59,544 bases of DNA, filler included, from Ionaspis alba (GCA_964255285.1; 4 parts of 4 records of this genome joined end to end with filler, not necessarily neighbours in it), one strand, 5' to 3'. Shown: positions 1-39,557, numbered from the whole stretch's first letter. A program made the numbers and translations. The notes: a model not told the origin generated them from the sequence alone.

Positions 1-2
1 AG

Positions 3-170
3 AATGCGGATGTCAAGGTGCAGTTGAGACTGACGACGCTGAAAGAGACGAATGAAGGGTTTTGGACTCGGAGGGGCTTTCGGACTACGGTGGTGAAGAG
101 GTTGCCGGAGGGGACTTGGGGGAGTGAGAGTGGATTTTCTGTGTTAGAGATGGTTAAGGATTTGGTGTGA
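3..170 (+). CDS. 3' end of a probable GNAT-family acetyltransferase (5'-truncated at scaffold start)
   Basis: Frame from nt 3 reads NADVKVQLRLTTLKETNEGFWTRRGFRTTVVKRLPEGTWGSESGFSVLEMVKDLV-stop. The L-TT..E.N..FW.RRGF...P.G.WGS..GF....M.K pattern resembles the C-terminus of fungal GNATs. Absent from the ORF track because it lacks a start. Confidence 0.55.
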   Translation, partial: NADVKVQLRLTTLKETNEGFWTRRGFRTTVVKRLPEGTWGSESGFSVLEMVKDLV

Positions 171-590
171 TGAGGAGCTTGAGGACTGTGGATGTAGATG
201 CTGGGAAGATCGAAGGAATGAGACGGTCGGGTGCTGGACGATATATACGAGAAATGACGGATGAGAATCATGGATGATCGATGACACACATGAATGTATT
301 AGATTTGGAGTATGGATATCACTTTTGGACACTGGGATTGCGGAGGATGGAACTCAAGAGTGTTGGTCATGGATTTTGGTTCTGAGCCTGCCTGCTGGTG
401 AAGCATTGTGCACTGGCAGTACTTGCTCACTTTGGCTACAACGTTCACATAGATTTCGTCCTGGACATTGGAATGATGACCGAAGCTCTCTTCATTTTCA
501 TATAAAACGCTCACAGAAACAACTCCCTGGACGCCTTACGAACTTTATGCATAAATTGGAAGGCACAAAACATCAATATGCAACCGCTGC

Positions 591-2814
591 TCAAGCTTCA
601 CCACCTCCCATGAATTTCTGCCCTTTCACACTGACCCACTCCATGCATCCAGAGGCAACGAAGCCTAAGGCGCCACCCGCGGCGGCGACGTACTATGAGA
701 AGAAGACACGTCAGCACAGCTGAGTCATCAAGAGCGGCACAAGAGATAGGTGTGAGAATGTAGTGGGGTGTTCGATCAGGATTAGAATTTCAAAAGTGCA
801 TAGGAACACTTACAAAGGTGGTCGTGATAGCTTTGTTATAAGCTTCCAGTACAGGTTGCAAGATCTCCGGCTTCACAACTTGGCGGACGGCGCCCGCTCC
901 AGCTCGAATAATCAATTGAGCATCAACCCCGGGTATGTGAATCAACTCGTCTGACAAGCGAGAGACGAAGACATTCTGGGCTATGGCGAGGAAGAAAGCC
1001 CCACCGAAGAATTGGAAGAAGACAATGATGGAGGTGCCGGTGGATATTTTGCGGAGAGGAAGGACGGCTTGTACGGCGATGAGAGGCTAGGACATGTTAG
1101 AGAAAGTGATGATCTGTATGTTCTGGTGGGGTAGGACGAACCATTTGCAGAATAGAACCAATACCAGCTCCCGAAATGGCTTGATAGCCAATCCATGCAG
1201 CAGCACCTGAGTCGGTCTTAAATGTTGTGTACAAGCCCGCGCCGATCGAGGTCATTGCAGTGCCGAAAAGAAGCCAAGGATTGTAGTATCCGAGCTTGGT
1301 CACTGTAAAGGAAGGCAAATAAGTTCGTGTTCTTTCGAAGGAATGCATAGGGAGCGATGTGATCTTACCAAGAACGCCTGCAAACAAGGAGAAGAGAACG
1401 TTTCCAACCACCGAAGGGAAGTACATGATACCACTGTCTGTTGGGGTAGAGTTCTTAATCACCTGGAACCAGATTGGCAGATAGTACGTGACAAGCTGAA
1501 GACCGCCCATGGCCAAACAAGAAACGACAGCGCCGAAGAACACACTGCGTTGTGTGAAGACATCCGGTGGAATACTAGCTTCGTCCTTCTTGTACCACTG
1601 CCATGCACCGAAAAGCACCAATACACCAAAAGCGCCCAAGATCAGGCCGATGATCATGGCAGACTTCCATGCATGGAGGTTGCCCCCCCACTGTAAGGCG
1701 AGAAGAAGCATCACCACAGCTGGAGAAAAGAGGAAGAATCCAGGCAGGTCAAGGCGCTTGAGTTTGTCGATAATACTGACACGAGCGACTGCTTGAGCTG
1801 GGGGAAAGAAGAAGAAGAACAGAACGATGGCCGTCACAGCTCCACATGGCAGGTTGATATAGAAGCCTGTTGCGATTAGTCTAAGCTGCCAGGGTTCAAT
1901 GATATGAAGTTGTTCAACGTACACCATCGCCAGGACACATGTTGAGTCAAAGCACCACCAAGAACAGGTCCTACGATGTTTGCGACTCCGAACATAGAGG
2001 CAATGATACCGGTGTACACTGGAGTAGAGATCAGATCGACGTGCACCGGGTGATGGACAGAAGCTACTCACAAGGTCGAAGCCTCAGTGGGATGGAGTGA
2101 GCAATGATCACAAGCGCTCCCGAGAAGAGACCAGTGGCACCAAGGCCTGCAATTGCTCGACCGAGAATGAGGACAACAGAGGATGGTGCGGTTGCGCAGA
2201 CCAAGCTGCCGATCTCGAAGACAAAAAGGAAACATAGGTAGGCCCATTTTAGAGAGAAATGTTGGTAGATCTTGCCCGATAAGGGTTGGCATGCGCATCT
2301 GAAGAACGTCAATTTCATGACCTCCACGACACTGGATCGTGTAACTTACATGGTGATGAGGAACGAGCTTCCATACCACCCTACATCGTCAAGAGAGTTG
2401 AAGTTTGTCGTGATAGTGGGTATGGCCTATGATAAGCGTTAGATCAACCGCTCGATGCTGGCGACTCTGACTCTTTTGATATCTTACCGTGGCAAGAATG
2501 GCATTATCCTAGAACACTGTTAGAATCAACATAGTCAGAGATGGATGAGCAGTGCATACTAGAGCAACGAGTAGCACGGATATTGACAGCCCAAAGACAA
2601 TAATATAAAGCTTGAATCCGGAAAGATAGACTGTCGAATCCTCATCGTTCCTCGCAATGGGGATTTCGAGTAATGAATCTGGTCGATCCCGGACAGACGA
2701 GCTTCTTTCCAGTGAAGACATCCTGTAAACAGGCTCGTTCAAAGCAGTGGTAGAAATGTCTTCGTTTGGGATTTTGGGAAGGACAACGTCCTTCTCCTGC
2801 CATGGTAACTTCAT
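591..2814 (-). CDS. MFS efflux transporter, DHA2/14-TMS family (AflT/GliA/TOXA-like), multi-exon
   Basis: Spliced ORF with LLVAL|DNAILAT|AIP.IT..F, GRAIAGLGATGLFSG, SWRWCFYINLP, LDLPG, YYLPIWFQ, PLIAVQ and AYNKAITTTF motifs; GT-AG introns; stop TGA at 591-593. Confidence 0.93.
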
Positions 2815-3666
2815 CTTGTCGTGAGGATCTGTAGAAACTCGCTGAGGATAAAGACAGGAAGAGAAAACGAAAGAGAGAAGTATTGTAGGTCCTAGATCAC
2901 GATCTAGTCTTTTCGTGCAGATAGGACAATCAAAGAATGTTGACGTGATGACAGTTAAGATAGGAAGAGACGAAGGAGAAGAAGAAGACTACTGTAGCCA
3001 GAGCCCAGTAGATCTGATAGTCGATGACCACGAGGCATGCGGGTCCATGCCTGCTGTTTGACTCTCGATCATGCAACATCGCCACAGTCAGTGAGTGCAG
3101 GCGAATGAATAACCGAAGCTCTGGTTCCGGCCAGCCTTTCCTGCCTCTTTCATGACCTTTTTCTGGCTGTCAGCAAAGGGCTGCCACACCCTTTACCCCG
3201 TAGTAACCCTGTATGGTTGGTACTAGGCGGGCGGCACGCCATGCACCTCATCTCAGCTCGATCACGGTTGCAGGCTTTTCCAAGAAACGTCCATCTGCCT
3301 TTGCTTATCCGGTTCCGTCCAACGGGCCACTGAACATCCGTCGCGGCCCGTCCATAACGCCTGCCGCGCCCTAAATTACTTGGGCTATTTAGGCTGCAGT
3401 AGCCGGTGGAGCCTCCGTCTTACGATACAATACGATGTAAATTACGGTACTGTGTAATCCGGGGTCCAGCATGCATGTGCTCTACTAATATTATTGTTTC
3501 TTGGGCGGTCAGCATCCCCTCAGCCCTCCACTCGTCTGTATCTTCTCAGCTTCTGCACAGGAAAAAAGTTTCTTCTCATACTAAAATAATTGCTGTGCTT
3601 CGTGTATATCCGACACAGCTCCTCACATCATCTTCCCTTTCACTCAAGAATAGCAAAGCCACAGCC
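2815..3666. promoter_or_regulatory. Divergent (bidirectional) promoter region MFS/SDR
   Basis: Head-to-head ATGs at 2814(-) and 3667(+); several CGG/CCG triplets. Position-based inference only. Confidence 0.5.
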
Positions 3667-4731
3667 ATGGACTTCATCAAAGCTCAGCTCTCCAAAATAC
3701 CCGCCATCACTCCAGTGAACCTCTCGGCCTGCACCGTCCTCATCACAGGCTCTAACACTGGTCTGGGTCTGGAGGCCGCCCGTGAATTCCTACCCTCGAA
3801 ACCAAAACGGTTGATTCTAGCTGTCCGAAACATCGAGAAAGGCAATGAAGCCAAAAGGGAGCTCGACAAGTCCAAAGCTGCTTCAACCCAGATCGAAGTC
3901 CGAAAGTTGGATCAAGGCAGCTTTGCTTCAGTCTTGTCGTTTGCAAAAGGTTTAAAGGGTGACCGGGTGGACTTGGCAATTTTGAACGCCGGTGAGTTTC
4001 GACCGTGGTTGCCTGACCAATCCGTCGCGGGAACTTATTTTTGACGTCCGTTCTAACATGTTCTCCACCCACCAGGTGTGTGGAATACCGAATTCAAACC
4101 TACCGAAGATGGTTACGAGTCGGATCTTCAGATCAACACGCTTGCGCCAGCTCTCCTCTCGATCCTACTCCTTCCGAACCTCCGCGCTGCTTCCAAAGCT
4201 CCGACTGAGAACAATGCCCCCCGACCGCATCTTGTCTTCACGACCAGCGGTCTTCACGAAACAGCCAAGTTCCCCGAGCGCAAACTTCCAGAAGGCCAGG
4301 TTTTGGCCGCGCTGAACGACCCCAAGAAGTATACGAAGTCAGATCGCTATGCGACGACCAAGACCATCGGCCTCCTCTGGACTCGTGAGCTTGCGAGCAG
4401 AGTGCCAAGCTCCGAAGTGATCATCAACTCGTCATCTCCTGGCTTCTGCAGCACTGGCATCATGCGAAACACCTCCGGTATGATGGGCTATACTGTCAAG
4501 ATAGCCGAGAAGATGCTCGGAAGATCGCCTCAGGATGGAGCCAAATGCCTGGTCAATGCTGCTGTAGCACAAGGCCCAGAGACACATGGCAAATTCTTGA
4601 GTGAGTGCCAGATCAAGCCTGAGTCTGCTCTCGTCAGAGGCCCGGAGAGTAAGGAGCTCCAGGGTAAGATGTGGAGGGAGATTTCTGGTCTGCTTACCAA
4701 GCATGGGTTGGACTCGAAGGCTGTGCCATAA
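3667..4731 (+). CDS. Short-chain dehydrogenase/reductase (retinol-DH/WWOX-like)
   Basis: TGSNTGLG Rossmann motif, LNAG|V across intron 3992-4075, YATTK catalytic motif, SSPGFC.T. Confidence 0.92.
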
Positions 4732-5440
4732 ATTGGCTTTGCACAGTGATGGTCACGGTCTTTGACATTTAGTACTTTCGAGCTTGTATTTCAGCCAGCC
4801 TTTTCTAGTATGAGCCATCAGGCTTGAGGCTGGAGAAGCTGGGTTCGCAATGGGATTGAAAATCTAGTTACGTTGGATCAATTGCAATAGCCTCTATGAG
4901 AAACCATCGGGTAATCGCCTCAATCCCGCAACTTTTCTTTTTGAGTCCGTGACGTACGTAGCTTCACTAGATGAATTCCTCGATTGTAAGGCACCCATGC
5001 AGCCTATGCGCACGATCCTTCCGCCCCCATTTTCTCATAATCCTTTGTTCTGTTACAGAAATCTTCGCGTGGCCTCCTAGGCCGGAGAAGGGTTCGGCTA
5101 CACCAACATCACAGGCGATTTGCACCATGCACACATCTTCCTTCGGACCCACTTAGCTCTTCGCTCGGCTGGAGGGTTTTGGTCTAGATGCAGAATCATA
5201 ATTCAGGATCAGACAATACAAAGTCCACACTAAAAGTTCGTTGCTGTGCCCACTAGGTACAATCGTAGGGGCCGTTAGCCAAAATCCTCCGCATAATCAA
5301 ATATTTACAGATATCCCAAATATGGAAAATGTGGCGCCAGAAAACGTGTGGTACCATATCCCAACCAGTTCCCACCCCCTGATAATGATCACCCAGCCAA
5401 TCCCGAGACCGTTTGTATACACGCCTGTCTACCATGGAGC

Positions 5441-6942
5441 CTAGACCCTATCTTCTACTCCATAATGCCTATCCGACCCGTAGTGTCTATCCACGTTGTA
5501 GTGCCTCCCTTCTGACACATCAGTCCTTGCCCACGCGGACCCTGGATGCACATTATCTCCAACTCTGGCATTGACATAGTCTTCCGGAGGGGTGTCTGGT
5601 GGCAACTGATGTAATGGTAGTACCATGTCATCCACGGTCGAAAGGCCTGTCATTTTGGATTTGTACCCAGAATCTTCCGATGGGTACTTGTGAGCGGAGA
5701 ACTTTGCACCGTGGGTCTTGCTGTTGCCGTTCGTTTTTCTCGTGCCTGCCGAGCCGCCATTGGAATTGAGGTCCAGTAGCGATTTGAAAGCATTGATCGA
5801 GCCGGCGCTCTTTTCCATTGCGAGCTTGAAAGCGGGCCGAATTGATGGCATGCTTGCGACAATGAGACCAATGTTCTGTTCGAGCCTGATGGTTGTGTTA
5901 GCCAGACTCTCTAATACTTCCATATGAAACAGAAAAGGGGTCATTACACTGTCGCGATCTCCAGTGGAGCAAAAGCATCTAGTAGAGATGAATGTTAGTT
6001 GGATTCTCCGGGTGCAGCGACGGTAGCTGAGGAAAACTCACAAGAAGAGTCCCTGAAGTCTGTGGCTATTCCGTATAGGTACATCCGGGCGACACAGCAT
6101 CCTGTGGTACTGAAGACGAATGAGTGGTGAAGACAAAGTTACTTGGCTGCAGATATCACTTACAATAGGCCTAAGCCGATAAGACCACATATGGCAATTT
6201 TCTGAGATCGACTGATTTTGATGTTCCATAGCACAATGACAGGGAGGGTACAGCAGATCAGATCAGTGATGATGGAGAAGCCTTGCCCACTTGTCAATGT
6301 CGTTCTGGTAGAGCCCGAACGATTGGTAGCACTCACCACCTTGGATCCAAGCAAAGGAGTAAAGGACGTCGTGGCTAAAGCATTGCCCTGGCACCGAGAA
6401 ATCCCAAAAGGACACGATGGGCCGACATTGAGCAAGAAGCTCGATGAAACAAGCTCCATTGACCACAATCAAAGCACCGATCAAGCCATACATGAAGCGA
6501 ATCAAGCGCCTGTTATTTGCGATTCTGATAATCAACAAACAGATAGATATCTTGGTAAGAGTGGTCGAGAAGATGAGGGGCATTTGTGCCAAAGTACTCC
6601 ATTTTTGCTGCTCGGTCGCTCGTTGTCGATCTAGGTAGTAGGCGTGTCTTCCGCCGCCATTTGCCACGTGCAACAGCACAAATGAAGTGTTTATCGCAGC
6701 GAATGCCTTTCACAGAGTCGTCAACACGAGTTGGATTGGCAATAGAGAAGCAAAAGTCTCACAGTAGCTGCGATTATTGTATAGTCATCCCAACCGACCT
6801 GGCGGACGAGGAAGCGCCGACTGTACATACGAAGAACGAGGGCAAGGACGACGAGTGTGAAAGATACAATGGTGACATCGCGCAAAGCGGGACCTCTGTT
6901 CTGATCACCTCCTACGGGAGGAGGACCCATAGGGTACGACAT
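5441..6942 (-). CDS. Pth11-like (non-CFEM) 7-TM integral membrane protein, multi-exon
   Basis: GDQNRGP, LRMYSR...GWDDY, GGGRH, TKISICL, AQCRPIVSFWD, SIITDLICCTLP, EQNIGLIVASMPSIRP motifs typical of the fungal Pth11/rhodopsin-like family, followed by a disordered C-tail. Confidence 0.88.
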
Positions 6943-7833
6943 TGCGATCTATCTCTAGTAAACAATAGAAATCTAGCAATGCTCCAGCTCGGATCAATAA
7001 GAGTGACACGAAGGACGCAGGTCGGAGAATTTGACAGCAGAAGTGCGGTGCGGCAGCAGGTTATCAACCAGTCCAGATCCAATGAACAAATGGCGGAAAT
7101 CCTGCTGCATGGCCATCGAAGATCCAACATGGGATTATGGCCCCCACCTTCCAGCTCTGATACAAGACTCCGCCACCGCTTGGGCTGAGAAGTGGGTGCT
7201 TGGCGAGTCATCTGGACGATGTTCTGTCCATTCATAGACAAGCATTAGAGTTCTGACGAAAGCATTTGTCAGGCAAAAGAAGGCACAGCAACTGGTGCAT
7301 CCGAGTTGATGAGAGTCCGACCGAGGTGTGGACTGAATATTCAGACTATCCGGCATATCTGCAAGCCAGAGTTGAGTGAGGTGCAGTCGTGCCGCTGACC
7401 GGTGCTTGATGCCTCCGGGAAATGAAATCGCCGAATTTCACTGAGGCTGTGATTGAAGCGCAAAGCCCCGGCCCGTTCACTAATCCTGGCGAGGACGAGG
7501 GTGTGCTGAACGAGGAGGGATAAGCTTAAATGCAAAACATGAACAGGGGGTCGAAGCACGCGGCACTGTCGGCGACACGTGGGAAATATGCTGATCTCTG
7601 CCCCATGGATCGGACTTCCCATGATTTCGGCTCGTTTGCAGCATCTGCACAGTGCTGGGATCCTGCCACTTGCATGATAAGAATTATGAAAGAGACTTCC
7701 ATATTCCACTTGTAATTAGCTTACTGGCGACTAATTTCTGCATGTCAGCAATAGGGCATAACACTACCACATGGTTTCTCCCTAGTTGTGTTGGAAACTC
7801 TTACCCTCCTCATCACACAATCATTATCCTACA
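6943..7833. promoter_or_regulatory. Divergent promoter region Pth11-like/GST
   Basis: Head-to-head ATGs at 6942(-) and 7834(+). Confidence 0.5.
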
Positions 7834-8799
7834 ATGGCAGGCACTGAAACCAGTAACGCTGGTCCATGGCGAGGTGTACTGGGTTCCAACACCTTTCCCG
7901 CCGAGCCGAACCGCTATCATCTCTACGTTGGCCTCTTCTGCCCGTTTGCACATAGGGTTCTCTTGGCTTGGCAGATGAAGGGGCTCCAGGATATCCTTCT
8001 GATGTCAATTGTGAGGCCATACCCGAAGGGCGAGGAAGGCTGGCGATTCCCCAAAGATGATTCCGAATACCCTGGAAGTACAGTTGATCACCTATTTCAC
8101 TCCGCCTTTCTTCGTGAGGTCTACTTCAAGTCACCGCCCTCTTATGGCGAGTACTCGGGCAGATACTCAGTGCCGGTTCTATGGGACAAGCAGACGAATC
8201 AGATTGTGAATAACGAATCTGAAGATATCATGCGACAGCTGAACAGCGCATTCAATGACCTTTTACCAGAAGGTCCAACGCGCTCGCTCAATCTCTACCC
8301 AGAAGAGCTCAAGGACGACATCGATTCGATCAACACCTGGCTTCCCCGCGACTTGAACGCAGGTGTATATATGGCTGGATTTGCTCCTACTCAGGAAGGT
8401 TACGAGAAAGGATGTCGAAACCTCTTCGCGACACTTGATAAACTTGAGGCGCTTCTCAAATCGCACGACGCACCTTATATTCTAAACCAGCATCTAACTG
8501 AGCTGGATCTGAAAGCCTACGCCACATTGGTGCGCTTCGACACCATCTATGTGCAGCACTTCAAGCTGAACATTGGCACCATCCGACACAATTTCCCATG
8601 CCTGCACCGTTACCTGAAGAATCTCTATTGGAACGTGCCTGGTTTCAAAGAAACGACGAACTTCATCCACATCAAAGAAGGCTACAGCAAGTGCCATGGG
8701 GATATCAATCCGAAAGGAATCACTCCGATTGGGCCTGTGCCAGATGTTGAGTTTTGGACTGCCGAGGATGAAGCTTGGAAGCAAAAGCGGTCGAGTTAA
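7834..8799 (+). CDS. Glutathionyl-hydroquinone reductase / Xi(omega-like)-class glutathione transferase (ECM4/YqjG family), intronless
   Basis: RYHLYVGLFCPFAHR active site (CPWAHR-like), YSVPVLWDK, IVNNESEDI, LVRFD.IY.QHFK.N, TTNF.HIK..Y, INPKGITPIGP. Confidence 0.92.
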   Translation: MAGTETSNAGPWRGVLGSNTFPAEPNRYHLYVGLFCPFAHRVLLAWQMKGLQDILLMSIVRPYPKGEEGWRFPKDDSEYPGSTVDHLFHSAFLREVYFKSPPSYGEYSGRYSVPVLWDKQTNQIVNNESEDIMRQLNSAFNDLLPEGPTRSLNLYPEELKDDIDSINTWLPRDLNAGVYMAGFAPTQEGYEKGCRNLFATLDKLEALLKSHDAPYILNQHLTELDLKAYATLVRFDTIYVQHFKLNIGTIRHNFPCLHRYLKNLYWNVPGFKETTNFIHIKEGYSKCHGDINPKGITPIGPVPDVEFWTAEDEAWKQKRSS

Positions 8800-8979
8800 G
8801 CATGACATTGGTAGAATTGATAGCAATAGAATAGAAACTATCTATTTGTACTATCCTAACAACATAAGATCACTCAGAATCCATAACGCCATCAGTCCTC
8901 ATCTATATAAAACTTTTCTCCGTTGCTCCAGCAATGAAATCGCTTGACACCAGAACGTGCATACTTTCCCGGGCTTGGA

Positions 8980-9842
8980 TCAGAGCTTCTTGCCACCCTT
9001 TCCCTTGTTCTCCAAACCCTCCACATACTTGAAGACAAAGACATAGGCGAATTCCGCCAGCTCAGCTGCAACGAACAGGAAAGTGGCAATTGGCGTGCGG
9101 ACATAGGCGTAGTCAGCTGGGTAGTTGACGTATCGGTACTGGAAGACGGCGATGGCCACGAGCGTGCCCACGAATCGAAGGAACCTATTGTAAAAAGATT
9201 GAGTTAGTAATCGTGACTCCGAGACATACTGGAGTAGGGGACTGTTCAGAAACATGACTAACCATATGGTCATAGAATGTCCCCTGGTGTGCCCTCTTGA
9301 TAGAAGATGTGCAATGCTGCTATAGCTGATCATGGTCTGGCAGACAAATCCACCCCAGAACCCAGCTTCACAGAGGTCTGTGAACGTCTTCGCTACGGCA
9401 AAATGGCAGGCCAACATGAATATGAGGCCAATTGCCGTGATGGAGTACATGTTTTTGGCAACAAGTGGGGAATGTGACCATTCCCTTGGCCCAAAGGCCA
9501 CAGTTGTGTAAAGAATGTAGATGTCAATCACCAAGAAAGGAAAGAAAGCCACGAATTCGGCGGTTGCGGGAGGATATACGAGGCCGTAAATCGTCTCCCA
9601 TCCGATGTTTGCCCATCTGAAGCATGGAGTTAGATCTTGGGGATCAAATAAATTGCAGTCTGCACAACTCACAGTGCAAACAAGGGCATGCCGTAGGATT
9701 TGTCTCGATATGCCTGTACGATATAGAGGACATAGGCAGAACCCCATAGAACACCGCAGAAGAGAGTGAGGCCATCTTGAATCCAGAGATAGCTCTCCGG
9801 AGGATTGTTGGCGGCGTCGATGGGGGAAAGAGGAAGATGCAT
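8980..9842 (-). CDS. Pyr4/PaxB(IdtB)-family integral membrane terpene cyclase
   Basis: Three exons (introns 9617-9672 and 9185-9262) give ...RDKSYGMPLFALWANIGWETIY...RGHTRGHSMTIWFLRFVGT...AAELAEFAY. SYGMP, N..WE and RGHS..IW..R..GT are family hallmarks; about 7 hydrophobic segments. Confidence 0.9.
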
Positions 9843-10564
9843 TATGAAGGACAGGTGGAAATTATCTCCGAAGATACCGATCAATTGGGTCGATCAGAAC
9901 GAGGTGGGGAATATACACTGGATGCAATATTCGACTTTAATAGAGGGGAAGACACGAGGGAAAGATCCAGCAGAGAGGGAGGGGCCCACACAAAATGAAA
10001 AATTGATATGAATCCAAGACCCAGCGTAAGGGTCCGATGCACACCCAGCTGCATCGCCCACGAGGTCGACAGGCAATGTAACCTCAAAATGACGAGAGAT
10101 TAGAAAATTACAGCAATCAGCATGCACATGTAATATACGAAACCGGGGACTCCATACTGCTTACGCGTGTCAGGCTAGCTGACGGCACACTATTGAGGCT
10201 CGTTCCCAAAACAAGAAACAGGCCGGCAAAAGCGACCGTGCCAGCGGGATTGCCTGCATCGCCAAATGGCATGCGACGTGGATGCAACGTGGTCGGGCAA
10301 GGATCATTCCGATATACCGGGACTCCCCGGCGGGACTTTTGGGCCGGTCAGCCAAGCCATTCCCTTCCGGGCATCCAACAACACCATAGCGCAAATTCCG
10401 TTGGGCTATTGAAATTGTGCATTTGTTTGATTGCTAAACTAGCGCTAAGTAACTAACTGAAATACGAGGAAGAGAGCATGGAAAACCAAAGAGATAGCCC
10501 CCAAAGTAACATGTGAATCCTTTCATCCTTCCGGAGACTCCATCCGCTGACTATCCTTGCTGCT

Positions 10565-11800
10565 CTAACGACCATCGCTGGAATCCTTGAGAGTCATAGT
10601 CTCCTGGCGGCCCCAAATCGCTGCAAATTGCGGGACCTGACGCTTCAGAGAATCCAGCTCCTTCATGCACACATCCTTGACCTCCTTGGCCTGGAGTACT
10701 GCCAATGCAGCCTGATGCCGCTGGTCCAGCAACGCTGGGTCCACCTCTCCCTTTTCGCCCAGTGCCTGCTGGACCACCACCCTCTCAGGTAGCGAAGAGT
10801 GAAGAGCAACGATGACTGGAAAGGAGTATTCGCCGTTGACGAGATCTTCGGCAAGCGCGCCTTTAGCCTTGATCACATCCGAGGAGTAGACATTCTTGCA
10901 ATCGTTCTGCAGATGGCAGTACCAACTATCCACTTCGGTTAGCGACCAGACATCCAATGAGAAGTGCTTCGTAGCGAGAACTTACCCAACGGCGCTCATG
11001 ACTTCGTCTTGATCGTGGTTTCCGAAGACCAACTGCCCCACAAGTCTGAATAGCGCTCCGGTCTTGAGGTAGGCAGAGTGTCTGTAGAGCTTGAGGGCCG
11101 ATTCTTGGTCTGGCATCTGCTGAAACCCATCTCGACGCCAAACAAGAGAGATGTCTTGACCTGCGAGTTCATGTATCAGCATCCATAGACAGATGTAGCC
11201 ATACAGGAATTACTGACCTTCGTGGATTTCCGTCAGATTTTGGAGAATGAATGGGATCATGGCCGGTCTTTGCCTTCGGATGTTCTCAATGACCTCAAAA
11301 ATGCGGAGATAAGCCCGGTTGATCGTCTCGCTGGATCCATAGACTTTGTGTGCTGCGAGCTTTCCTTTTCTGAGAACGCTGTTATCGGCAACATCGTCCA
11401 CCAAGATGGCGCCGAAGTGCACAGCATCCATGATATCCAGTATCAGCTGGTATTGAATGGGATCCTGGGTCTTGAGCTGGGAGTTGAGAACATTGACGAG
11501 CGTGGTGAAGTGGTGTTTGCCGTAGACTTGTAGGATGTATTCGTAAGGACAGTCACAGTCGCCCCGGGCGACCTCCACTGCCAACTGCTCCTTCTCTGAG
11601 CTAGTACGTTCGCGGACAGCTTTGCTGCTGCTCTTCGAAATAGCGGATCCCCATCTCCACGAAAAGCTCAACTTGGGGTTCAGCATGAACGTGGGGAGGG
11701 TGATACCGAGTACGGCCAGGGCGGCGGCGATGGGTACGAGAACAATAGATGGAATAAGATGTACGGAAGTAAACACCGATGAAGCAACGGGGAAGATCAT
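10565..11800 (-). CDS. PaxC/LtmC(IdtC)-type indole prenyltransferase (isoprenyl diphosphate synthase fold) with N-terminal hydrophobic anchor
   Basis: Three exons (introns 11161-11217 and 10926-10985). Motifs CPYEY...[20 protein letters not shown]...[62 protein letters not shown] match IdtC rather than ordinary GGPP synthases. Confidence 0.92.
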
Positions 11801-12819
11801 GATAGCGATGGGAGTCTTGTGGATTCTATGAAGAATAAACCTCTGGATACACGACTTTGTCTTGGTACAACGATTTTGAGCTATCGATAAACGACAAAGG
11901 TTCAACAGATATTATATAGAAAAATGACTATCCACATCAGGCTTACTCTTCCAGCTTGACCAACACGGCTTCTCGGAAACGGAAAAAGGCCCAAGCTGCT
12001 ACTACTGAATCCCCCAGGTCTTATCACACTGTTGCAACGGTTTCGTCAGATATTGTCTAGGCTGTTCAGAGTCATCTGGAGGAGGCGAGGCAGCCATATC
12101 GACGGTGCCTAGACGCCCCCAAAAATGATTCCTTGGCCAGGGGTAAAGAGTAATATTTTGAGCCGTCTCAGTCTGTCCCGCACGCGAGGCTCTGGGATGG
12201 ATGGGTGGAGGCTGATGGTGTGATTATCATTGCCACGAGGAATGTCAGCCAGTCGACCAATACAATCTGACCATTCTTCCTCCATCGTGTTGGTGCCTTT
12301 GCAAAAATAGTGAACGAAGGCCAGGGGAGGGGAGAAGTTGTGGTCAGATCGTGGTCTAGCTGTGTAACGCATGGCAGCTTACAACCATACTAGCCTCTGA
12401 ATCCCTCACCGACAAGCGCCGAATTGATTACAGAACGCAGCCAGCCTTCTTACGCGATCCCATCCCGTCCCCATCAACGGAGGATGCTCCAGCCCACCAA
12501 GTCACATTGGTTGCAGGCATTGTTTGCAGGCCACTGTTGGTTATCTCAATAATGGCTGCATATGATTTGGCTAGCTGTAACCAGCTGCTGACGTCGATAA
12601 GGGCTAAGTTTTGGAATTGGTAAGATAGTACGACCCTGGCCTGGCTGTGCCGAGTCATCTTTTTTTGCTTGCCATGTGCTATCATGCAGGAAGAATTTTA
12701 GTATTATTGTGCGCTGTATCTCCGGGGTTGAGGGAAATTGGAGAAGCCGAAGAAAGATTAGGGAAATCTTGTTTGCGAAACAAAAATAATTGTTGTGATT
12801 CTTTGTCTGAAGACTCAAG
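11801..12819. promoter_or_regulatory. Divergent promoter region IdtC-like/FMO
   Basis: Head-to-head ATGs at 11800(-) and 12820(+). Confidence 0.5.
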
Positions 12820-14823
12820 ATGACTCGTGATAATGTTGCTGAACGGGGTGATACAAGGAGGAATAAAGATGTTCTGGTTATTGGAGCAGGTGAGTCTTGA
12901 TATGGGCTCTTCGTTGGCACAATATCTCTCTAACAACGTCAAGGTCTTCATGGCTTAGTGACAGCCAAAGCTTTGCTCCACGACTCCAATGACTTTTTTG
13001 ATTCCGTCACGATATATGAGAAGAACAACCGCCTCGGAGGCGTCTGGTCTGAAGACCGTATCTACGAAGGCTTGACGACCAACTCTCCTCTGCTCACCTA
13101 CGAAATCCCCGAATTCCCCTATCCCGAGAAGCTTCGATCCGCCGGCGGCCATGTCGCAGCTCAAGATGTCAATCGATACTTCCATGCCTATGCGGAACAA
13201 TTCGGTATTTCAAAGCACGTACAATATCAGACTCTCGTCGAAGCCCTGGAGTGGGAACCAGAGTCTTCAGCGTGGGTCGTGCAGGGCAAAACTCCACGGG
13301 GAGGCTTTCAGAGACATTTTGGCTACATAGTTGTATGTGTGGGTCTGTACCATACTGGTCTCATCCCTCTGGCAGGGTCCCAAACCTCAAGTTATGCCGG
13401 GAACATCTGGCATTCTTCTGAGATGGGTAACAACGACGTGAAGAATACCCTCGCGAACTCTCAGGAGGTGATAGTATCAGGCGCTGGGAAATCTGCCCTT
13501 GATATCTCGACTCTACTGGCGCAGGGGAAGTGGACAAAGCCCAACTGTGATCCTCCGAATGTGACCTTGGTCTACAGGAGACCGCATTGGCTCTCCCCAC
13601 GGAAAATTGTACGCGGAACTGTAGCGTTTGAGAAGCTGCTATTCTCCCGTTTTGTCGTCAGTGCCCTACCACCTTTCTCATGATCGTCCTGCGCTGATGC
13701 CCGTGATTCTTTACAGTCTGCATGGCTACCCTTCGTCCGACATCCCGATGCTTTCCATCGATTGATCGCAGACACATGGTTCGGCAGATGGTCCACGAAC
13801 CAGATCTTCGATGTCATTGCGGATGACTTTGTCAAGTCTCTCAATCAGCAAGATTTACCACAAACTATCCCTAAGCATTCTTTGGCAGTGGCTCTATCCG
13901 GAGCTTTGCACGTGGAGCCTCCAGGGTTTATTGATTGTGTACGTGACGGGCGGATCAAGATCGTTGAAGGCAGCATCGTAGACCTCGAAGGAAAGGTCAT
14001 GAATGTCAAAGGAATTGAAGGAAGTTCAATCACTGTTGAAGCAGACAATATTTTGATGGCCACGGGCTACAAGCTGGTAAGATGCTAGATAATCCGGGTA
14101 TTTTCGTATCTGTGCTTAATGCTTACTCCCCGCTCCAGGCTCTGCCTTTCTTCTCGGACACGACACTTCGAGACTTGGGCCTCCTCAGACCCGAAGAAAA
14201 GATCTCAGACAACACGGATCTGCCCTACATCAGACTCTATCGCGTGATCGCTCCCCCGAGCACAGTCAATCCGTCTGCCAAAGGACCCTATCGCAATATC
14301 GCCTTCAATGGCTTTGCTTATTCCCTTCTTAACCCCACAGTGGCTCATGTTACTGCCAACTGGATATGTGACTACTTCGCCGGGGTCATCGCTAGTCCGG
14401 ATGCAACGCACGTTGAACAAGGTAAGAGTTTATTATCGGAATACTGAGGACCTCGAGCTCGCTAACGATAATTGCAGAAATCAACGATTTTCATGCATGG
14501 CAAGCCAAGTCCTTCGGCCCCCACGGCGCCAAAGGGGTCCATATTGGCCCACATGCCACCTTGTACAGCGATGTGTTACTTGCAGACATGGGTTTACAGT
14601 CCGGTCACGTCCAGGGGAATGTGCTGAATCCTCTTCGATTTTTTTGGGAATGGTTTCGGCCAATGTACCCCAGTGTTTACTCTGGTGTGGCTGCTGATCG
14701 CAGGATTCGAGGTAATGACGAAATCAAGATGTTGAATATGGATGGTTGGGATAGTACCACATTATTGGCGGCCGTGTTTGTTTCCGTGCTATTAGCGATA
14801 CTATTGGGATATTTGTACCTAGG
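12820..14823 (+). CDS. Class B flavin-containing monooxygenase (FMO-like) with C-terminal transmembrane segment; stop codon lost at scaffold end
   Basis: Exons 12820-12889, 12944-13656, 13717-14076, 14139-14421, 14478-14823. VLVIGAG|LHG FAD motif, EK...LGGVW, YAGNIWHSSE (FxGxxxHSxxY-like fingerprint), SGAGKSALD NADPH motif, DNILMATGY, terminal TTLLAAVFVSVLLAILLGYLYL. Confidence 0.9.
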
Positions 14824-14923
14824 NNNNNNNNNNNNNNNNNNNNNNNNNNNNNNNNNNNNNNNNNNNNTTAATTAATTAANNNNNNNNNNNNNNNNNNNNN
14901 NNNNNNNNNNNNNNNNNNNNNNN
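14824..14923. other. Artificial scaffold-joining spacer N44-TTAATTAATTAA-N44
   Basis: Exactly 100 nt with a six-frame-stop 12-mer at 14868-14879; identical to the two other spacers. Confidence 0.97.
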
Positions 14924-15306
14924 CGTAGACCGGACTTGCTACTGGCGCATACGCTCACTGATAGACCAAAGATAGAAATTGGAGTCAGAGCAGGCAACAT
15001 GAACTTGAACAGAGGAAAAGAGTAGTCACATAGTCAAGGCAAAGCAATTCATTGGTCGTAGGATTGTTCTCCAGATCGTAAAGTATCTGTGTATGCAACG
15101 ACACGTATTAGGGTATTCATGAGCGGAAGCAAGCAAAACGCATGAAACTTGTGAGATTGCGTAGCAGGTTTCCAAGATATCTTTGGTGTTACAGCTGAAT
15201 TCTCTATCAGCCCCTAAAGCTAGTATCACAAATCTTAGAAACTACACCCAAAGACCATATCGCCTTGAATATGCAGAATCGAACGCAGTAACCATTACCG
15301 GATCAT

Positions 15307-16347
15307 CTAAACCAGCTCCGACGTAACATTTGAGAATTCGCCTTTCTCGAGCTTCGTCTTCCAGAATATCGGATTCGTATCCTATCATCGACATTAGTAC
15401 AGCAACCAGACTTGGGAAGACAATGCCAAAGCTCACATTGAAACCATGCTTCACCCATCCATCCTCTTTCACGTGGTAGAGGTTGATAAACCCTCCAGAG
15501 TAGGCATCTCTGTGCGTAGCAGCAAGAATACTTCTTCGGCCCAACTCTAATGCAGCCTCCTCGGAAAGATCGTAGTGATATTCTGCATCCAATACACCAT
15601 AGGCGAACGTTTGTCCAGATCCAACACAGAAGAGGTTGCCCGCTAATCTCGTCCCGTCGGAGTCGATGTAGTAGAGCGCCGGACCCTCTTGTGGAGTCAC
15701 TCCTGCGCACATGGTTCCCATGCTCAATCCCATTCCTTTGTATGAGTAGACAAGGTTCGATAGGATCTTAGAGGCCGCCGCGACTGATATCCGGCGCTTA
15801 TGCCTCAACTCGTGTAACCGACATTGCATTCCGAGGTAAGCGAGCCAGTATTGACAGTCCTATCACAGGATATTATCAGCACGGCAAAATGAGGCCGAAG
15901 CAGGGTCAAAGCATCCTACCGCCGCTCCTCCTGCCATGGTTCCCAATAGGCAGTTATTGATTTCGATCACTTTCTTGACTGTCTGACTTGCTATCCAGTT
16001 TCCTGCAGTGGCTCTCGAGTCCGTAGCAACTATAATTCCTCCTTGGAACCGGAATGCCAACGTGGTAGTGCCATGAGCGAGCTTTATGGGACAATTTGGG
16101 TTGGCATGGTCATCTGTAGTGGCTCTGAGAAAGGCGGAAGGCTAGAGTAATAGGTCAGTATTTTTGTACGAGAGCATCTTGAGTTCTGCGATTGGGGTGA
16201 AGTTGAACTAACGCTGGCCAGTGGAGGTAAAGCAAACTTCAAAGAAAGAGGAGGCGTTGCCTGCGATAGCTCTTGTTGCTCATCCCAGGAGTATCCTTCA
16301 TTCTGGAAAGCAGGCCGACTATATTGGGTGACGAGGGAGTTCATCAT
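15307..16347 (-). CDS. PRE2: 20S proteasome subunit beta5 (chymotrypsin-like)
   Basis: Propeptide then [62 protein letters not shown]; last exon [28 protein letters not shown]. Confidence 0.97.
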
Positions 16348-16790
16348 GGAAGGTACAGGTTCGAAGGAGTGACGAGGGCTGGAAGAAAGATTAAGAAGGA
16401 GATGAACTTCTTGGATTCAAAGGATGGTGAGAAGGCACAGTGATTTGATAGAGCTACAAGACGAAGCCTTCGCCAGGTAGCTTCGAGGTGACGCGCCAAC
16501 ACCACAAGGCTGAGAATAAAGCTTACCTAATTCCCGTTAGCGTAGTCCAGTTCGCAATGATGGCGAGAATGATCTTGAGCTTAGTCGTGGACTGTAGTTC
16601 ACTCTTGTCTAGCTCAGTCTTCCACATTCACGATAGACTACTCTATCTTCCAAATACCTCAATACTGATCACTCTACTTACACTCCTTCTAAATTACATT
16701 TGAAGGTTTCTCACAACATCACCAGGTTGACAGGCTGCGCCGTCCCGTATCCAACTCCATATCTTCTCCACGGTTGGACTCTGCACCACG

Positions 16791-18445
16791 ATGCCAGTAT
16801 CAGTGGCGCTGAATACACCGCTCGCTGAACAATTGAGCAATGTCGTACAACCAAAGCTCGTGGAGGTTGGGTGGAGCACTGGTGGCTTGGACGACTCTGC
16901 ACTCGCGGAATACATCATCCTGATGCTCGTGAATGGCAAGACTCAGGACCAAATCGCCTCGGAGTTATCACACGACTTGCTCAATCTCGGTCCAGATGAC
17001 TCTGGAGCAACAGATTTTGCTCGGTGGCTCTTCGAACAAGTAGAGACTCTGAGCAACACCGCATCGGATCATGTACCTGTCGCTCCACAAGCTCAACAGC
17101 CAGAAAATTCGGATCAAAATTCACGAAGAGAACGCAAGCAGTCGAGCGGATCAGGTAGTCAGGATGCAGATATGGGCGAAGCTATGGAAGTCGTGCAGGA
17201 TGGTGTCATGTAAGTATTATGTGCCGACGTGCAAATGATCACAGCGGGCTTATAAATTCTAGTCCAACCGGGCCGAAGTCAATGCGGAACGGAGGTCGCC
17301 CGGCAAACAGAAGAATGATGGGGCAGCTGTCGAAAGCTATGGATCGATCTCAAGACTCAGTACTTCATCGCGTACGGCCTCAGCAGGGTACCGAGCGCAT
17401 CAATATGCACAACAGACAACCACCGAAGGGCCCACGCGGAGATCTATCCCGAGGGAGAATGCCGAATGGCGGGATACCTTCAGGTCCTGCCAACGGAGGT
17501 CCCATGAATAGGGGTCCAGCTGCTGCCATGACGCAGATGACCGCTCAGCAGCAGATGCAATTGCTGGCGATGTACGAACAACAGGCTCGAATCATGTCAG
17601 AGATACTGGGACCACAAGGACAGCAGATGTTTATGCCTGGAATGAATGTTCCTGCGGTCAACCCAGCTTTCCGTAACGGCGTTCCAAACCAGCCTCAGCA
17701 ACAGGGCCGATCGTTATTCGAGCGCACCGAGGTACGACCCCAACGACCGAACCTCAACGGCAACAATCGACGACCGCAACAAAATGGTAATCGGGTCCAC
17801 ACCACTGTCCAAACTGACACGGACATGGGGAACAACGACGTAACCTCCTCTATGGAAGTCGAGAGCTCGCAAGACGCTTCCACAAAACCCCCCTCAGAGA
17901 CTATGTGCAAGTTCAATCTCAAATGCACAAAAGCGGACTGCCCATTCGCCCACCAGTCTCCCGCTGCGCCACCAGGAACAACCATCGATTTCAGTGACCA
18001 CTGTCCCTTTGGTGCTGCTTGTCAGAATAGGAAATGTGTTGCAAGTCATCCATCACCGGGGCAAAAGCAAACGCATCAGTCCGAACAAGACTGCAAGTTC
18101 TTCCCAAACTGCACCAATCCCAAATGTCCATTTCGACATCCCACTATGCCAATGTGTCGGGATGGCGCCGATTGCAAGCGTGAAGGCTGCAAATTCACGC
18201 ATGTCAAGACCAAATGCAAGTTCAATCCCTGTTTGAATCCAAGCTGTCCCTACAAGCATGAAGATGGGCAGAAGAGGGGCGCGTTCACCGATAAGGTCTG
18301 GATTGCTGAAGGTAGTCAAGAGAGGGAGCATGTTAGTGAAAGGAAGTTCGTGGCTGGGGCGGGAGGAGACGAGGAGCTTATCGTGCCAGAGGCACAGGGT
18401 ATGGGCGGTAGTCAATCGAGTATGGGAGCGGAGGTTGTGACATGA
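16791..18445 (+). CDS. NAB2: Nuclear polyadenylated RNA-binding protein Nab2 (PWI-like N-terminus, tandem CCCH zinc fingers)
   Basis: VQPKLVEVGWS...LAEYIILMLVNGK N-terminus; repeated C..CPF.H CCCH fingers; EHVSERKF; intron 17210-17262. Confidence 0.88.
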
Positions 18446-18907
18446 AGAACGGTGCGTTGGTGGAACTGGATCTGTGTTCGCTGGCGGATCCTCTGCGCTG
18501 GTCGGGTATGCGGGGGTTTTACCGATTTTTGGTGTCAGGTCGGGATATGATACCAGATACATTGTATAACATGTCAACGGGAGGGGCATCACAAGGGCGT
18601 TTTGAGTGCTCATATTGCCTGCTGGATGGCACTGGAGGTCATTGATAGGTAGAATAGTTATGGAACTTGGACGTTTGAGCTACGGACTTTACGGCTGTGC
18701 ACATATCCAAGTTCCTGTGGCAGCGTGGGCCCTAGTAGCTGTTTTCCCATCTTCTTATCAGGTTCATAGTATATGTCTCCTATGGTTTGTGACTGCGTAC
18801 AACTTTTCGCTATTATTTGCAATAGATAATTTACGTCAGCGTTCTACCGACTTCCAACCACACCCAGAGCTTCTTGGGTAGCAATATTCTGCCACATCAT
18901 AAAGATA

Positions 18908-20788
18908 ATGAACTTGAAGTGCCAAGCTAGTGTACTGGACAACCTATTGAGGATATGCTACACCCGCCAACATCGCTTCTGTGAATTCCAGAAAAGGACA
19001 TACGCCGCTGTGCCGGTCCCGTCAAAAACAACACACGAGATCAAGGATGTTGCCATCCTCGGCGGTGGGATCACAGGACTAGCAAGTGCATACTACCTCA
19101 GCAATGTGCTCCCAAAGATCAAGATCACGCTCTACGAGAGTGCTCCGCGGTTGGGAGGCTGGCTGCGTTCGACATCAGTTGATGTTGGCAGCGGTAAAGT
19201 AGTCTTTGAGCAAGGCCCTAGGAATCTACGGCCCAGTGTCCCCAATGGAATGGTTACTTTAGAGCTTGTAAGTTCGAGCGCTGCTAGTAATGACGAATTG
19301 CTCATATGAAGTCGTAGTTAAGGCTGTTGGGAATGCAGGCAGAGATATTGATGACCTCTAAAAACTCTGTCGCTGCTCAAAATCGATTTGTCTACTATCC
19401 TGATCATCTAGTTTGCATGCCAGGGCCAAACCGGGCCTGGGAAAACATTAAGACCATTTTGACAGAGCCTGTGCTCAATGGATTTGTTTCTGGTCTCCTG
19501 ATGGAACCTTTCAAGAGCAAGCCTGCAAATCTCCTTGATGAGTCTGTTGGCGATTTCGTCACTCGTCGCTTTGGAGCCTCTTTGGCAGACAATGTTGTAT
19601 CTGCTGTTATGCACGGTATCTACGCAGGCGACATCTATCAATTGAGTGCTAGATCGATACTACCGAGACTGTGGTTGTACGAATCCGTGCATGATTCAGT
19701 AATCGTCGGAGCTTTGTCTGAAACTATGCACGAAGACCCCTTAGAGCCTGCCAAAGATCCAGCTCTGGTGGCCGGGCTAAAATCTCTGATGGCCACCAGC
19801 GAAGGAAAGCCACGCCCTGGATTTGAAATCATCAACGAAGCTTCGAAGTCCAGCGTCTTTACTTTCAAAAAGGGTATTGGAGCGCTCGCTGAAAGGCTCG
19901 AGGAAGCACTAGAACTCAAGCCCAATGTAACTATCAAGAAGAGTACTCCCGTTGAATCATTGAAGCTGGTCTCACGAGGAGAAACATCAAAGGTATGTGT
20001 GGAAAGGATTCTTAAAGTGCCAGAATGCGCTCACGCACTGGTGTCCATAGATTCAAATCAATCCCTCGGAGAAGAATAAGTTCAGTCCTGGCTACCAAGA
20101 ACTACTCTACACGCACGTCATCTCCACCATATCTGGCAAAACCCTAAACAATTTGACACTGCCGGCTCAGAGTCTGGCTCCATTAGCCGTGACACCCTCA
20201 GTCTCAGTCATGGTCGTCAACCTCTACTATAAAAATCCGGATCTCCTCCCAGTCCATGGATTTGGCTATCTCCTTCCCCGCTCTCTCCCGTTAGAGCAGA
20301 ATCCGGAACGAGCCCTCGGCGTTGTGTTTGACTCTGATGCTACTATCGGCCAAGACAACATTCCAGGCACGAAGTTGACCGTCATGCTCGGAGGGCACTG
20401 GTGGGATGGCTGGGACTCCTATCCAGATGAAGATGAGGGCGCTTTCATGGCTCGATCGATCCTGGCACGTCATTTGAAGATCATAGACGAACCGCAGGCG
20501 GTAAGGGTGAGTTTGCAGAAGGAATGTATACCACAATACACAGTCGGTCATACGCAAAGGATGGAGGCAGCCAGCGCTATGTTAGAGGAGCGATTTAATG
20601 GGAGGCTGAGGGTTGCTGGGAACAGTTATACGGGTGTGGGTTTAAACGACTGCATACGAGCTGCCAGGGACGTTGTTGAGGGCCTTCTGACTGGGGTTGG
20701 TAGTACTGGACTGGAGGATTTCGTAGGCGGGGAGAGGTGGATTCGGAATAAGAAGGGGGTCGGTGTGGGAATTAGAAATTCCTTTTAG
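18908..20788 (+). CDS. HEM14: Protoporphyrinogen oxidase (mitochondrial), 3 exons
   Basis: AILGGGITGL, RLGGW, FEQGPRNLR, DESVGDF..RRFG, HGIYAGD...LS, GFGYLLP, CIPQYTVGH, GVGLNDCI. Confidence 0.95.
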
Positions 20789-21143
20789 GCTTGAGTCTGA
20801 CGGATCTAAAATAATACCAATATTTCTGCCACGTCAGAAAGGACAACACCAAGGTTTAAAAATCTTGTGGAAATTATATAAGCAACCATCCTGAGTTGTG
20901 GACGCAAGCCGTCTTTATTGGCTCAGAGTACGTGCCATTGTTGCATTCCCTGATAGAGCTCCGAAAAAATCGTCGTTGCACGTCTACTTCATCCCTCATC
21001 GGAGCCATCATAAACGCCCATAAAATGAATCTATGGTGTCCCTTGGCGCCGCACCGGAGCATCAATGCAGCCCATAGCATCCCTTTCTATTATTCACGTT
21101 GCGCCAAAGAGCCCAAGCACTTTCTCAAACACTCGGACCTTGT

Positions 21144-21788: not shown

Positions 21789-22138
21789 GGTGAATCGTTG
21801 ATTGATTTTGACTATTCGTTTGCTGGGACGCGAAGAGAGCTTCCTGCCATAGATAGAAATATACAACGACTGTGCCGATCTGGCTTTTCAACTGTAGCGA
21901 TCAATCATCAGATATAGGGCCAAAGCGTGGGAAGACGCTGTTGGTGTTGATATTTTTGACTCAATCCAAATAATGGATCACCATTTAGCGGCGGAAGTTC
22001 GCCCGGACGCACTGACCAATCAACAGTGAGCGTCGGTCAGAAGCTTCAAACAGACCTCCAAATTCCAATCCCCCCTCTTTGAACCACAGTCGTCTTAACC
22101 CTAATTACTCTCTGCGCGCTCTTCTACTATTCGTAAAA

Positions 22139-29745: not shown

Positions 29746-29845
29746 NNNNNNNNNNNNNNNNNNNNNNNNNNNNNNNNNNNNNNNNNNNNTTAATTAATTA
29801 ANNNNNNNNNNNNNNNNNNNNNNNNNNNNNNNNNNNNNNNNNNNN
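29746..29845. other. Artificial scaffold-joining spacer N44-TTAATTAATTAA-N44
   Basis: 12-mer at 29790-29801 flanked by 44 N on each side; genes on both sides are cut. Confidence 0.97.

Positions 29846-38142: not shown

Positions 38143-39557
<1,415 letters not shown>

Follow-up and report, generated by a model that had tools for sequence, protein, structure and literature searches.

The window analysed here, a stretch of 59,544 nucleotides (filler included) from Ionaspis alba (GCA_964255285.1), consists of four joined contigs. The first is a whole contig of 14,823 bases (positions 1–14823) that carries seven genes, encoding a major facilitator superfamily (MFS) transporter, a short-chain dehydrogenase/reductase (SDR), a seven-transmembrane (7TM) Fung_rhodopsin protein, a Xi-class glutathione transferase (GST), a Pyr4/PaxB-type cyclase, a PaxC/IdtC-type prenyltransferase, and a class B flavin-containing monooxygenase (FMO). 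Domains were assigned by a Pfam scan (E ≤ 0.01) of the 117 stop-to-stop open reading frames (ORFs) of at least 70 aa found in the first 20 kb, 95 of them on the contig. Looser scans covered 20 of these ORFs (E ≤ 5) and 69 intergenic ORFs of 30–69 aa (E ≤ 1). Gene models were built by alignment to full-length relatives, and GT-AG introns were taken from the DNA. We lean towards reading the locus as a conserved, uncharacterised variant of the indole-terpenoid clusters, with a five-gene core (IdtC-like prenyltransferase, cyclase, FMO, SDR, and MFS transporter) and possibly a farnesyl, drimane-type route that proceeds without epoxidation.

The prenyltransferase gene (11800–10565, − strand; exons 11800–11218, 11160–10986, and 10925–10565) encodes a protein of 372 aa. 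Its first exon matched polyprenyl_synt (PF00348) with an E-value of 1.9e-13 (50.7 bits for a cut-off of 27), and the protein showed the fold of trans-isoprenyl diphosphate synthases, its top PDB matches being geranylgeranyl diphosphate (GGPP) synthases at just E 4.5e-15; a PDB search with exon 3 returned no match. The first motif reads DDVAD and the second LQNDCKN, and DDxxD together with LQNDCKN was found in all 27 full-length sequences compared (that of the contig and 26 relatives, including one named janC). Where this family has LQNDCKN, the human-type GGPP synthase reads IRDDYAN, as aligned through a 53%-identical relative (P0008). Because DDxxD is kept and LQNDCKN replaces IRDDYAN, the contig's PRENYLTRANSFERASE is, judged by its motifs, an IdtC-family protein in a wide sense and not a GGPP synthase. 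We also observed, ahead of the catalytic domain, a hydrophobic helix-like N-terminus of about 20–30 residues (11680–11800 in the window, and in relatives from both clades of the family described below), which suggests that these proteins may be anchored in the membrane beside the cyclase.

Named relatives of the prenyltransferase included Bcpax1 of Botrytis cinerea, proteins called 'prenyl transferase' in Geopyxis, Metarhizium, Tolypocladium, and Mycoleptodiscus, and a janC-named protein of Escovopsis; many unnamed proteins of lichen fungi were also recovered from a large protein collection. A maximum likelihood tree, midpoint-rooted and built without an outgroup or a Eurotiomycete PaxC, split these sequences into two clades (support 100/99 and 100/100). 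Clade I contains Hypocreales and Xylariales proteins, and clade II the prenyltransferase of the contig with those of Elaphomyces, Alectoria, B. cinerea (Bcpax1), Mycoleptodiscus, Geopyxis, and five Pleosporales. The contig enzyme was 44–53% identical to clade II and 36–42% to clade I and, in this midpoint-rooted tree, it sits in the sister clade of the Hypocreales/Xylariales enzymes of terpendole-like clusters. Bcpax1 has been listed as an 'unknown indole-diterpene' (PMC9920419, PMC11173184).

These data leave room for a non-indole meroterpenoid, in which the PaxC-like enzyme would prenylate an aromatic or nucleophilic acceptor other than indole, supplied by genes at another place in the genome, before the Pyr4-type cyclase acts. 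In the data examined, the clade of the prenyltransferase has no characterised member, its first-motif region resembles GGPP synthase (LLIDDIEDNSKLRRG) more closely than does the canonical IdtC form (LILVDDIxDxSxxRKN), and the cluster contains no tryptophan- or indole-related gene. However, canonical indole-diterpene clusters likewise lack an indole-supplying gene, since their indole comes from primary indole-3-glycerol phosphate (PMC12038925, PMC9810782), and PaxC-like enzymes are stated by Tang & Matsuda to be specific to indole sesqui- and diterpenoids (PMC11109268). Moreover, neither the contig nor the scanned related loci contained a gene for a polyketide synthase, a nonribosomal peptide synthetase, or another acceptor-forming enzyme. 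We therefore regard a non-indole product as rather unlikely.

The cyclase gene (9842–8980, − strand; exons 9842–9673, 9616–9263, and 9184–8980) directly adjoins the prenyltransferase gene, as the earlier note on this DNA had described. The 242-aa product matched the Pyr4-TMTC family of transmembrane terpene cyclases (PF25129) with an E-value of 6.8e-49 (167 bits for a curated cut-off of 27), to which exon 1 adds 50.4 bits. It has the size of about 240 aa typical of the family, and WETIY at residues 63–67 of the spliced protein corresponds to the WExx(Y/F) motif described for PaxB relatives (PMC3760044). Five relatives were retrieved, a low number that is partly due to a search requiring shared 5-residue words; the best of them, from Trematosphaeria and Lentithecium, were 45% identical, and two JGI entries named 'paspaline synthase' were 35–37% identical. 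The cyclase is thus indeed divergent, as had been proposed.

The class B FMO gene (12820–14823, + strand, five exons) runs up to the contig end. It matched FMO-like PF00743 (E 6.6e-13) and also Lys_Orn_oxgnase PF13434, and its closest PDB matches were FMOs and Baeyer–Villiger monooxygenases (BVMOs), with E-values of 2e-8 and weaker. Alignment to the 611-aa Geoglossum orthologue revealed the dinucleotide-binding motifs VIGAGLHG and SGAGKSALD and extended up to residue 603, so the contig end removes just about 8 codons; the C-terminal tail is hydrophobic. Orthologues with 50–62% identity were found in Geoglossum, Trichoglossum, Amniculicola, and Mycoleptodiscus. The SDR gene (3667–4731, + strand; Pfam adh_short/KR) has two exons separated by an intron at about 4000–4065, and its translation contains the TGxxxGxG and YxxxK motifs; a PDB search with exon 2 gave no match. 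The MFS gene (about 700–2814, − strand) has its start codon at 2814, was resolved in the 3′ direction as far as about 790, and encodes a TRI12-like efflux transporter of the DHA2 type (TRI12, E 2.2e-12; MFS_1 and Sugar_tr also matched).

The gene coordinates bear out the three head-to-head pairs noticed earlier, namely MFS/SDR (intergenic region 2815–3666, 852 bp), 7TM/GST (891 bp), and IdtC/FMO (intergenic region 11801–12819, 1019 bp). The divergent promoters of the contig and of a related locus (L008, see below) shared four 7-mers, for 1.86 expected and a maximum of six in shuffled sequences, and no word of 8 or 9 bases. Since the 7-mer count fell within the shuffle range and no longer word was common, a shared promoter motif was rejected.

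No GGPP synthase, class A FAD_binding_3 (PF01494), P450, or DMATS domain was detected in the 95 contig ORFs, in agreement with the earlier note, which had seen none of these genes in the 14.8 kb; the only polyprenyl_synt gene of the contig is the IdtC-like one, and its only flavoenzyme is of class B. The frames of all seven genes are open and can be spliced, the introns that were checked follow the GT-AG rule, and no sign of a pseudogene was seen.

As had been pointed out, the contig is cut at both ends by scaffold limits: a spacer of the form N44-TTAATTAATTAA-N44 at 14824–14923 bounds positions 1–14823, and both ends are thus true assembly ends. The contig was covered at a word depth of about 116 by one public DNA run (X1) and thinly by a second (X2). 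In the public run that contains this contig, extra contigs with 85–95% likeness stack up at both ends (1–600 and 14400–14823) and differ from it at numerous bases and by short indels (199–630 and 14406–14473). They look like alleles or repeat copies, and their presence may be the reason why the assembly broke there. Beyond one 97-letter loose end, the two runs yielded no extension of the contig. A conventional indole-diterpene cluster truncated in the assembly could have this appearance, with the GGPP synthase, PaxM, P450, and DMATS genes lying past the ends or elsewhere and a product of the paspaline or emindole type, and helpers encoded outside the cluster are known in indole-diterpene biosynthesis (PMC10595974). 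Against it stand the position of the prenyltransferase outside the canonical clade and the presence of housekeeping genes only on the three other contigs of the window.

Related loci on longer contigs bear on the same question. Metagenome contigs were scanned with an alignment of exon 1 of the prenyltransferase, giving 27 loci with up to 10 kb of flank per side, in which exon translations were compared by tblastn. A cyclase adjoins the IdtC relative in 18 of the 27 loci. Among the nine others, seven stop less than 1.4 kb past the prenyltransferase, L026 has 2.3 kb downstream, and L012 has 9.4 kb. The FMO was found in 10 loci, the SDR in eight (63–65% identity), the MFS transporter in eight (50–77% identity), the 7TM protein in four, and the GST in none. 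The earlier note had allowed that the accessory genes might not co-occur with the prenyltransferase and cyclase; FMO, SDR, and MFS do, but the GST does not and the 7TM gene does so in a single other lineage.

In L002–L009, the gene order is MFS(−) SDR(+) FMO(−) IdtC(+) Pyr4(+), with 50–77% identity to the contig, whereas the contig, when flipped, reads FMO(−) IdtC(+) Pyr4(+) GST(−) 7TM(+) SDR(−) MFS(+). The divergent MFS/SDR pair is kept in L002–L009 and the divergent FMO/IdtC pair in L001–L009. The five genes have thus stayed together through a rearrangement in which the MFS/SDR pair moved as a unit, and their 50–77% identity despite this rearrangement points to selection. In the flanks of L008/L002 (2.5 kb past MFS and 7 kb past the cyclase), the 79 remaining ORFs of at least 75 aa had no relevant Pfam domain, and no second polyprenyl synthase, FAD_binding_3, or DMATS domain was detected in the scanned flanks of L008/L002, L021, and L012. 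The earlier note had described a PaxC-type gene beside a Pyr4/PaxB-type one, in a cluster unlike the G-C-M-B core (GGPP synthase, prenyltransferase, epoxidase, and cyclase). Related loci corroborate this view: on contigs as long as 224 kb, they keep FMO, SDR, and MFS next to the prenyltransferase and cyclase, and no idtG, idtM, or DMATS gene was seen in the surrounding 10 kb or so. The shortness of the contig therefore does not explain the departure, and the lack of these genes around IdtC (about 10 kb) on contigs of 78–224 kb argues against a truncated ordinary cluster.

Consistent gene neighbourhoods were also found in named genomes. Consecutive accessions were obtained for FMO and IdtC in Amniculicola (KAF1996431/2) and in Mycoleptodiscus sp. 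DH-2022a (UUG60172/3), and for Pyr4 and IdtC in Lentithecium (KAF2685264/5). The Mycoleptodiscus proteins, deposited in GenBank in 2022 as 'flavin-binding monooxygenase' (UUG60172, 50% identical to the FMO) and 'prenyl transferase' (UUG60173, 46% identical to the prenyltransferase), have consecutive accessions and are therefore neighbours in one record. In Supplementary Data 5 of Tang & Matsuda (2024), six relatives (Amniculicola, Lentithecium, Trematosphaeria, B. cinerea, Lindgomyces, and Lophiotrema) are listed as 'TC (Pyr4), PT (PaxC)' only, with a similarity of 13–16 to any known cluster and no PPPS or DMATS entries. The B. cinerea cluster (BCIN_05g05630-05700) includes Bcpax1. Canonical indole-diterpene clusters in the same table carry PPPS and DMATS at similarities of 40–98, which further argues against the truncated cluster, a reading we consider unlikely; several clade I loci appear there as terpendole-like, with 'TC (Pyr4), PT (PaxC), PT (DMATS), PPPS' at similarities of 50–78. 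Five of the six listed clusters were undetected by antiSMASH, and that of B. cinerea was not analysed by it. Since the named relatives were missed where analysed, such clusters are easily overlooked.

The pairing of a PaxC-like with a Pyr4-like gene is well known, and relatives of this cluster are already catalogued: a PaxC-like gene is present in 131 of the 1050 Pyr4-type clusters of that survey, which did not study these 131 further (PMC11109268). We found no paper on the Mycoleptodiscus cluster or on any pathway combining PaxC, Pyr4, and a class B FMO, and no description of a conserved class B FMO–SDR–MFS set, of a steady absence of G and M, or of a product; as subscription journals lay mostly outside the search, this is weak evidence of absence.

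In the pathway that we propose for the five-gene core, the IdtC-like enzyme would draw a prenyl diphosphate from primary metabolism and use it to prenylate indole in the form of indole-3-glycerol phosphate; indole is the acceptor of all characterised enzymes of the family. Farnesyl diphosphate (FPP) would be the simplest donor, in which case no GGPP synthase is needed in the cluster; GGPP made by the GGPP synthase of primary metabolism could equally serve. Ring closure by the Pyr4-type cyclase would follow, most likely begun by protonation of the terminal olefin, and would give a drimane-type indole sesquiterpenoid; a start of this kind would account for the missing PaxM-type epoxidase. Oxidation of the product, for instance at its indole ring as in mycoleptodiscin quinones, would fall to the class B FMO and the SDR, and export to the MFS pump. 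Mycoleptodiscin A carries an oxidised (quinone) indole ring. The compound is treated as a drimane meroterpenoid that synthetic chemists prepare from drimenol, with no C-3 hydroxylation (PMC11575645), and its source was a Mycoleptodiscus sp. (PMC8746379). The single steps have precedents: the Pyr4-family cyclases MacJ and MfmH form drimane-type rings without epoxidation (PMC10882540), indole-sesquiterpene clusters without a GGPP synthase gene are described (PMC10595974), and in bacteria, an indolosesquiterpene pathway includes indole hydroxylation by the flavoenzyme XiaF (PMC5481743). From the genus name, we infer that the Mycoleptodiscus deposit encodes mycoleptodiscin-type drimane-indole biosynthesis. 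The chemistry of the cluster may therefore already be known, since a homologous FMO–prenyltransferase pair has been deposited from a genus of drimane-indole alkaloid producers.

Alternatively, the class B FMO, probably anchored in the membrane, would replace PaxM as the prenyl epoxidase. A broader proposal, which we hold possible but doubtful, is that of a widespread, so far unstudied branch of indole-terpenoid biosynthesis in lichen-type fungi, Geoglossomycetes, Leotiomycetes, and Pleosporales, without GGPP synthase and PaxM. In this branch, either a membrane-anchored FMO would activate the prenyl chain, or the cyclase would protonate the olefin and the FMO build an indole quinone. In the second case, the outcome would be mycoleptodiscin-like cytotoxic drimanyl-indoles in lichens, with the Xi-class GST perhaps protecting the producer.

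Several observations weigh against the conserved five-gene variant with its drimane-type route. The lineage represented by L013–L024 has IdtC, cyclase, P450, and 7TM genes without FMO, SDR, or MFS; its upstream genes encode HET, ankyrin, and glycogen-synthase proteins. Several of its copies look broken, with the last IdtC exon and the cyclase matching in short pieces (L021, 10598–10850 and 11570–12391; L014; L024), and possibly represent a decaying cluster. The well-flanked L012 has IdtC and FMO, the latter 75–79% identical to that of Geoglossum umbratile, but no cyclase was detected there by tblastn or with a hidden Markov model of the five cyclase relatives. Most of the 27 loci come from a few organisms resampled in one record series, and the number of independent lineages is perhaps about 5–8, not 27. 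The FMO fingerprint, YAGNIWHSSEM, fits the FMO/BVMO consensus at its first seven positions and ends in M, so that it matches exactly neither the FMO form (FxGxxxHxxxY/F) nor the BVMO form (FxGxxxHxxxW). We know of no precedent for class B FMOs as prenyl epoxidases in fungal meroterpenoid pathways. The mycoleptodiscin link is drawn from the genus name of a GenBank deposit and from background chemistry, and an unclustered PaxM or GGPP synthase may lie elsewhere in the genome or past the contig ends. In the literature consulted, no clade II prenyltransferase had a demonstrated substrate or product, so that indole is assigned as acceptor from family membership and the length of the chain is likewise putative; the new prenyl-indole scaffold proposed in the earlier note is, for this reason, unsupported.

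In parallel, we considered that the cluster could be a silent or decaying relic whose neighbours were kept by ancestry and which makes no product. The fragmented cyclase and prenyltransferase matches of L014, L021, and L024 are consistent with it, as is L012, which has no cyclase and lies in AT-rich DNA (flanks of 29–33% GC). However, the seven contig genes are open, with catalytic motifs kept, and L002–L009 have retained all five core genes through the rearrangement. A relic is thus very improbable. In L012 (Ga0307515_10007989, 9670–16797), the IdtC-like and FMO genes form islands of 40–45% GC in the surrounding 29–33% GC DNA.

The two remaining genes of the contig are probably not core enzymes. 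The 7TM gene (6942–5441, − strand, about four exons) matched Fung_rhodopsin PF20684 (E 9.8e-19), and its nearest ESM Atlas clusters were all Fung_rhodopsin; in four of the 27 loci, all of one other lineage, the cyclase has a 53%-identical gene next to it. The Pth11-like label given to it earlier holds loosely, since the 7TM domain is present but no CFEM domain was detected by Pfam in any contig ORF. A role as an IdtA/IdtS-type THP cyclase was considered and is unsupported, the ESM Atlas having given generic Fung_rhodopsin clusters alone; PaxA itself had no InterPro match in 2013 (PMC3760044). Of the eight genes announced, the seven described here were confirmed by Pfam, but the GNAT gene was not found: no acetyltransferase domain was detected in the 95 contig ORFs or in either of the two looser scans. 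The likeliest source of this call is the ORF at 5444–6037 (− strand), which is the C-terminal exon of the Fung_rhodopsin gene and aligns to the same gene in four related loci.

The GST gene (7834–8799, + strand, single exon; Pfam GST_N_2/GST_C_2) encodes an enzyme of the glutathionyl-hydroquinone reductase type, which matched PDB 3PPU (E 1.6e-82, residues 18–306 of 322) and the Trametes GST Xi 6GC9 (E 3.3e-79) and has the N-terminal Cys-Pro motif (CPFAH) of the Xi class. Because it is an ordinary Xi-class GST and is missing from all 27 related loci, being inside the cluster in the Ionaspis alba genome only, the claim that no housekeeping gene lies in between is doubtful. It is probably a bystander or a self-protection gene; that it protects the producer if the product is a quinone is pure speculation.

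The other contigs of the window lie at 14924–29745 (14,822 bases), 29846–44653 (14,808 bases), and 44754–59544 (14,791 bases), with further artificial spacers of the same make-up at 29746–29845 and 44654–44753; no feature can be read across these joins. Additional gaps of 100 N are present at 32601–32700 and 54162–54261. By Pfam, the genes on these contigs encode a proteasome subunit, Nab2, an amine oxidase, UBR1, PIG-F, a RhoGAP, and a Nup133-type nucleoporin. The UBR1-type N-recognin E3 ligase (23253–29444, + strand; zf-UBR, UBR1-like wing, and PRT6_C) is encoded by an uninterrupted ORF of 2064 aa, and the absence of introns across 6.2 kb is unusual.

Among the indole terpenoids are tremorgens, insecticides, and anticancer leads, and their biosynthesis is commonly presented as resting on an invariant G-C-M-B core. 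If our reading is right, this rule would be broadened by a conserved cluster family in which C and B persist, a class B FMO stands in for the epoxidase, and the GGPP synthase is missing; an FMO that activates the prenyl chain would be unprecedented among fungal meroterpenoids. To our knowledge, indole terpenoids have not been established in lichen-forming fungi; the cluster would point to them there and would provide a defined five-gene set for heterologous expression. With one claimed gene absent and two probably bystanders, its value is that of a genome-mining lead, without mechanistic surprise until a product is shown.

Finally, the contig was compared with known systems. As in the PAX cluster of Penicillium paxilli (paxG, paxC, paxM, paxB, and paxA), an indole-type prenyltransferase of the polyprenyl-synthase fold, with an altered second motif, lies beside a Pyr4/PaxB-type cyclase of about 240 aa with WExx(Y/F). 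Unlike PAX, the contig has no recognised GGPP synthase, class A FAD epoxidase, P450, DMATS, or IdtA/IdtS homologue and has a class B FMO, an SDR, and an MFS transporter, and its prenyltransferase, 36–42% identical to those of the canonical clade, falls in a separate one. The SPD cluster of Cordana terrestris and the SES cluster of Tolypocladium album, which lead to prelecanindole and sespendole, likewise lack a GGPP synthase gene and use FPP, and SPD also holds an oxidoreductase; they need a FAD-dependent epoxidase (SesM/SpdM) and a two-domain prenyltransferase, whereas the contig has a single-domain enzyme and no class A epoxidase (PMC10595974). MacJ (macrophorin) and MfmH (mfm cluster), compared by description, are Pyr4-type cyclases that, as on the contig, have no epoxidase gene beside them, but they act on polyketide–farnesyl hybrids from UbiA- or DMATS-type prenyltransferases, and the contig has a PaxC-type one (PMC10882540). 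The Bcpax1 cluster and the Pleosporales 'TC (Pyr4), PT (PaxC)' clusters share the prenyltransferase clade (44–53% identity to the contig enzyme) and the Pyr4-type cyclase, with no PPPS or DMATS listed, and in Amniculicola the FMO adjoins IdtC; these clusters are catalogued only. Mycoleptodiscus sp. DH-2022a, compared through UUG60172 and UUG60173 alone, has neighbouring orthologues of the FMO and the prenyltransferase, as the contig does.

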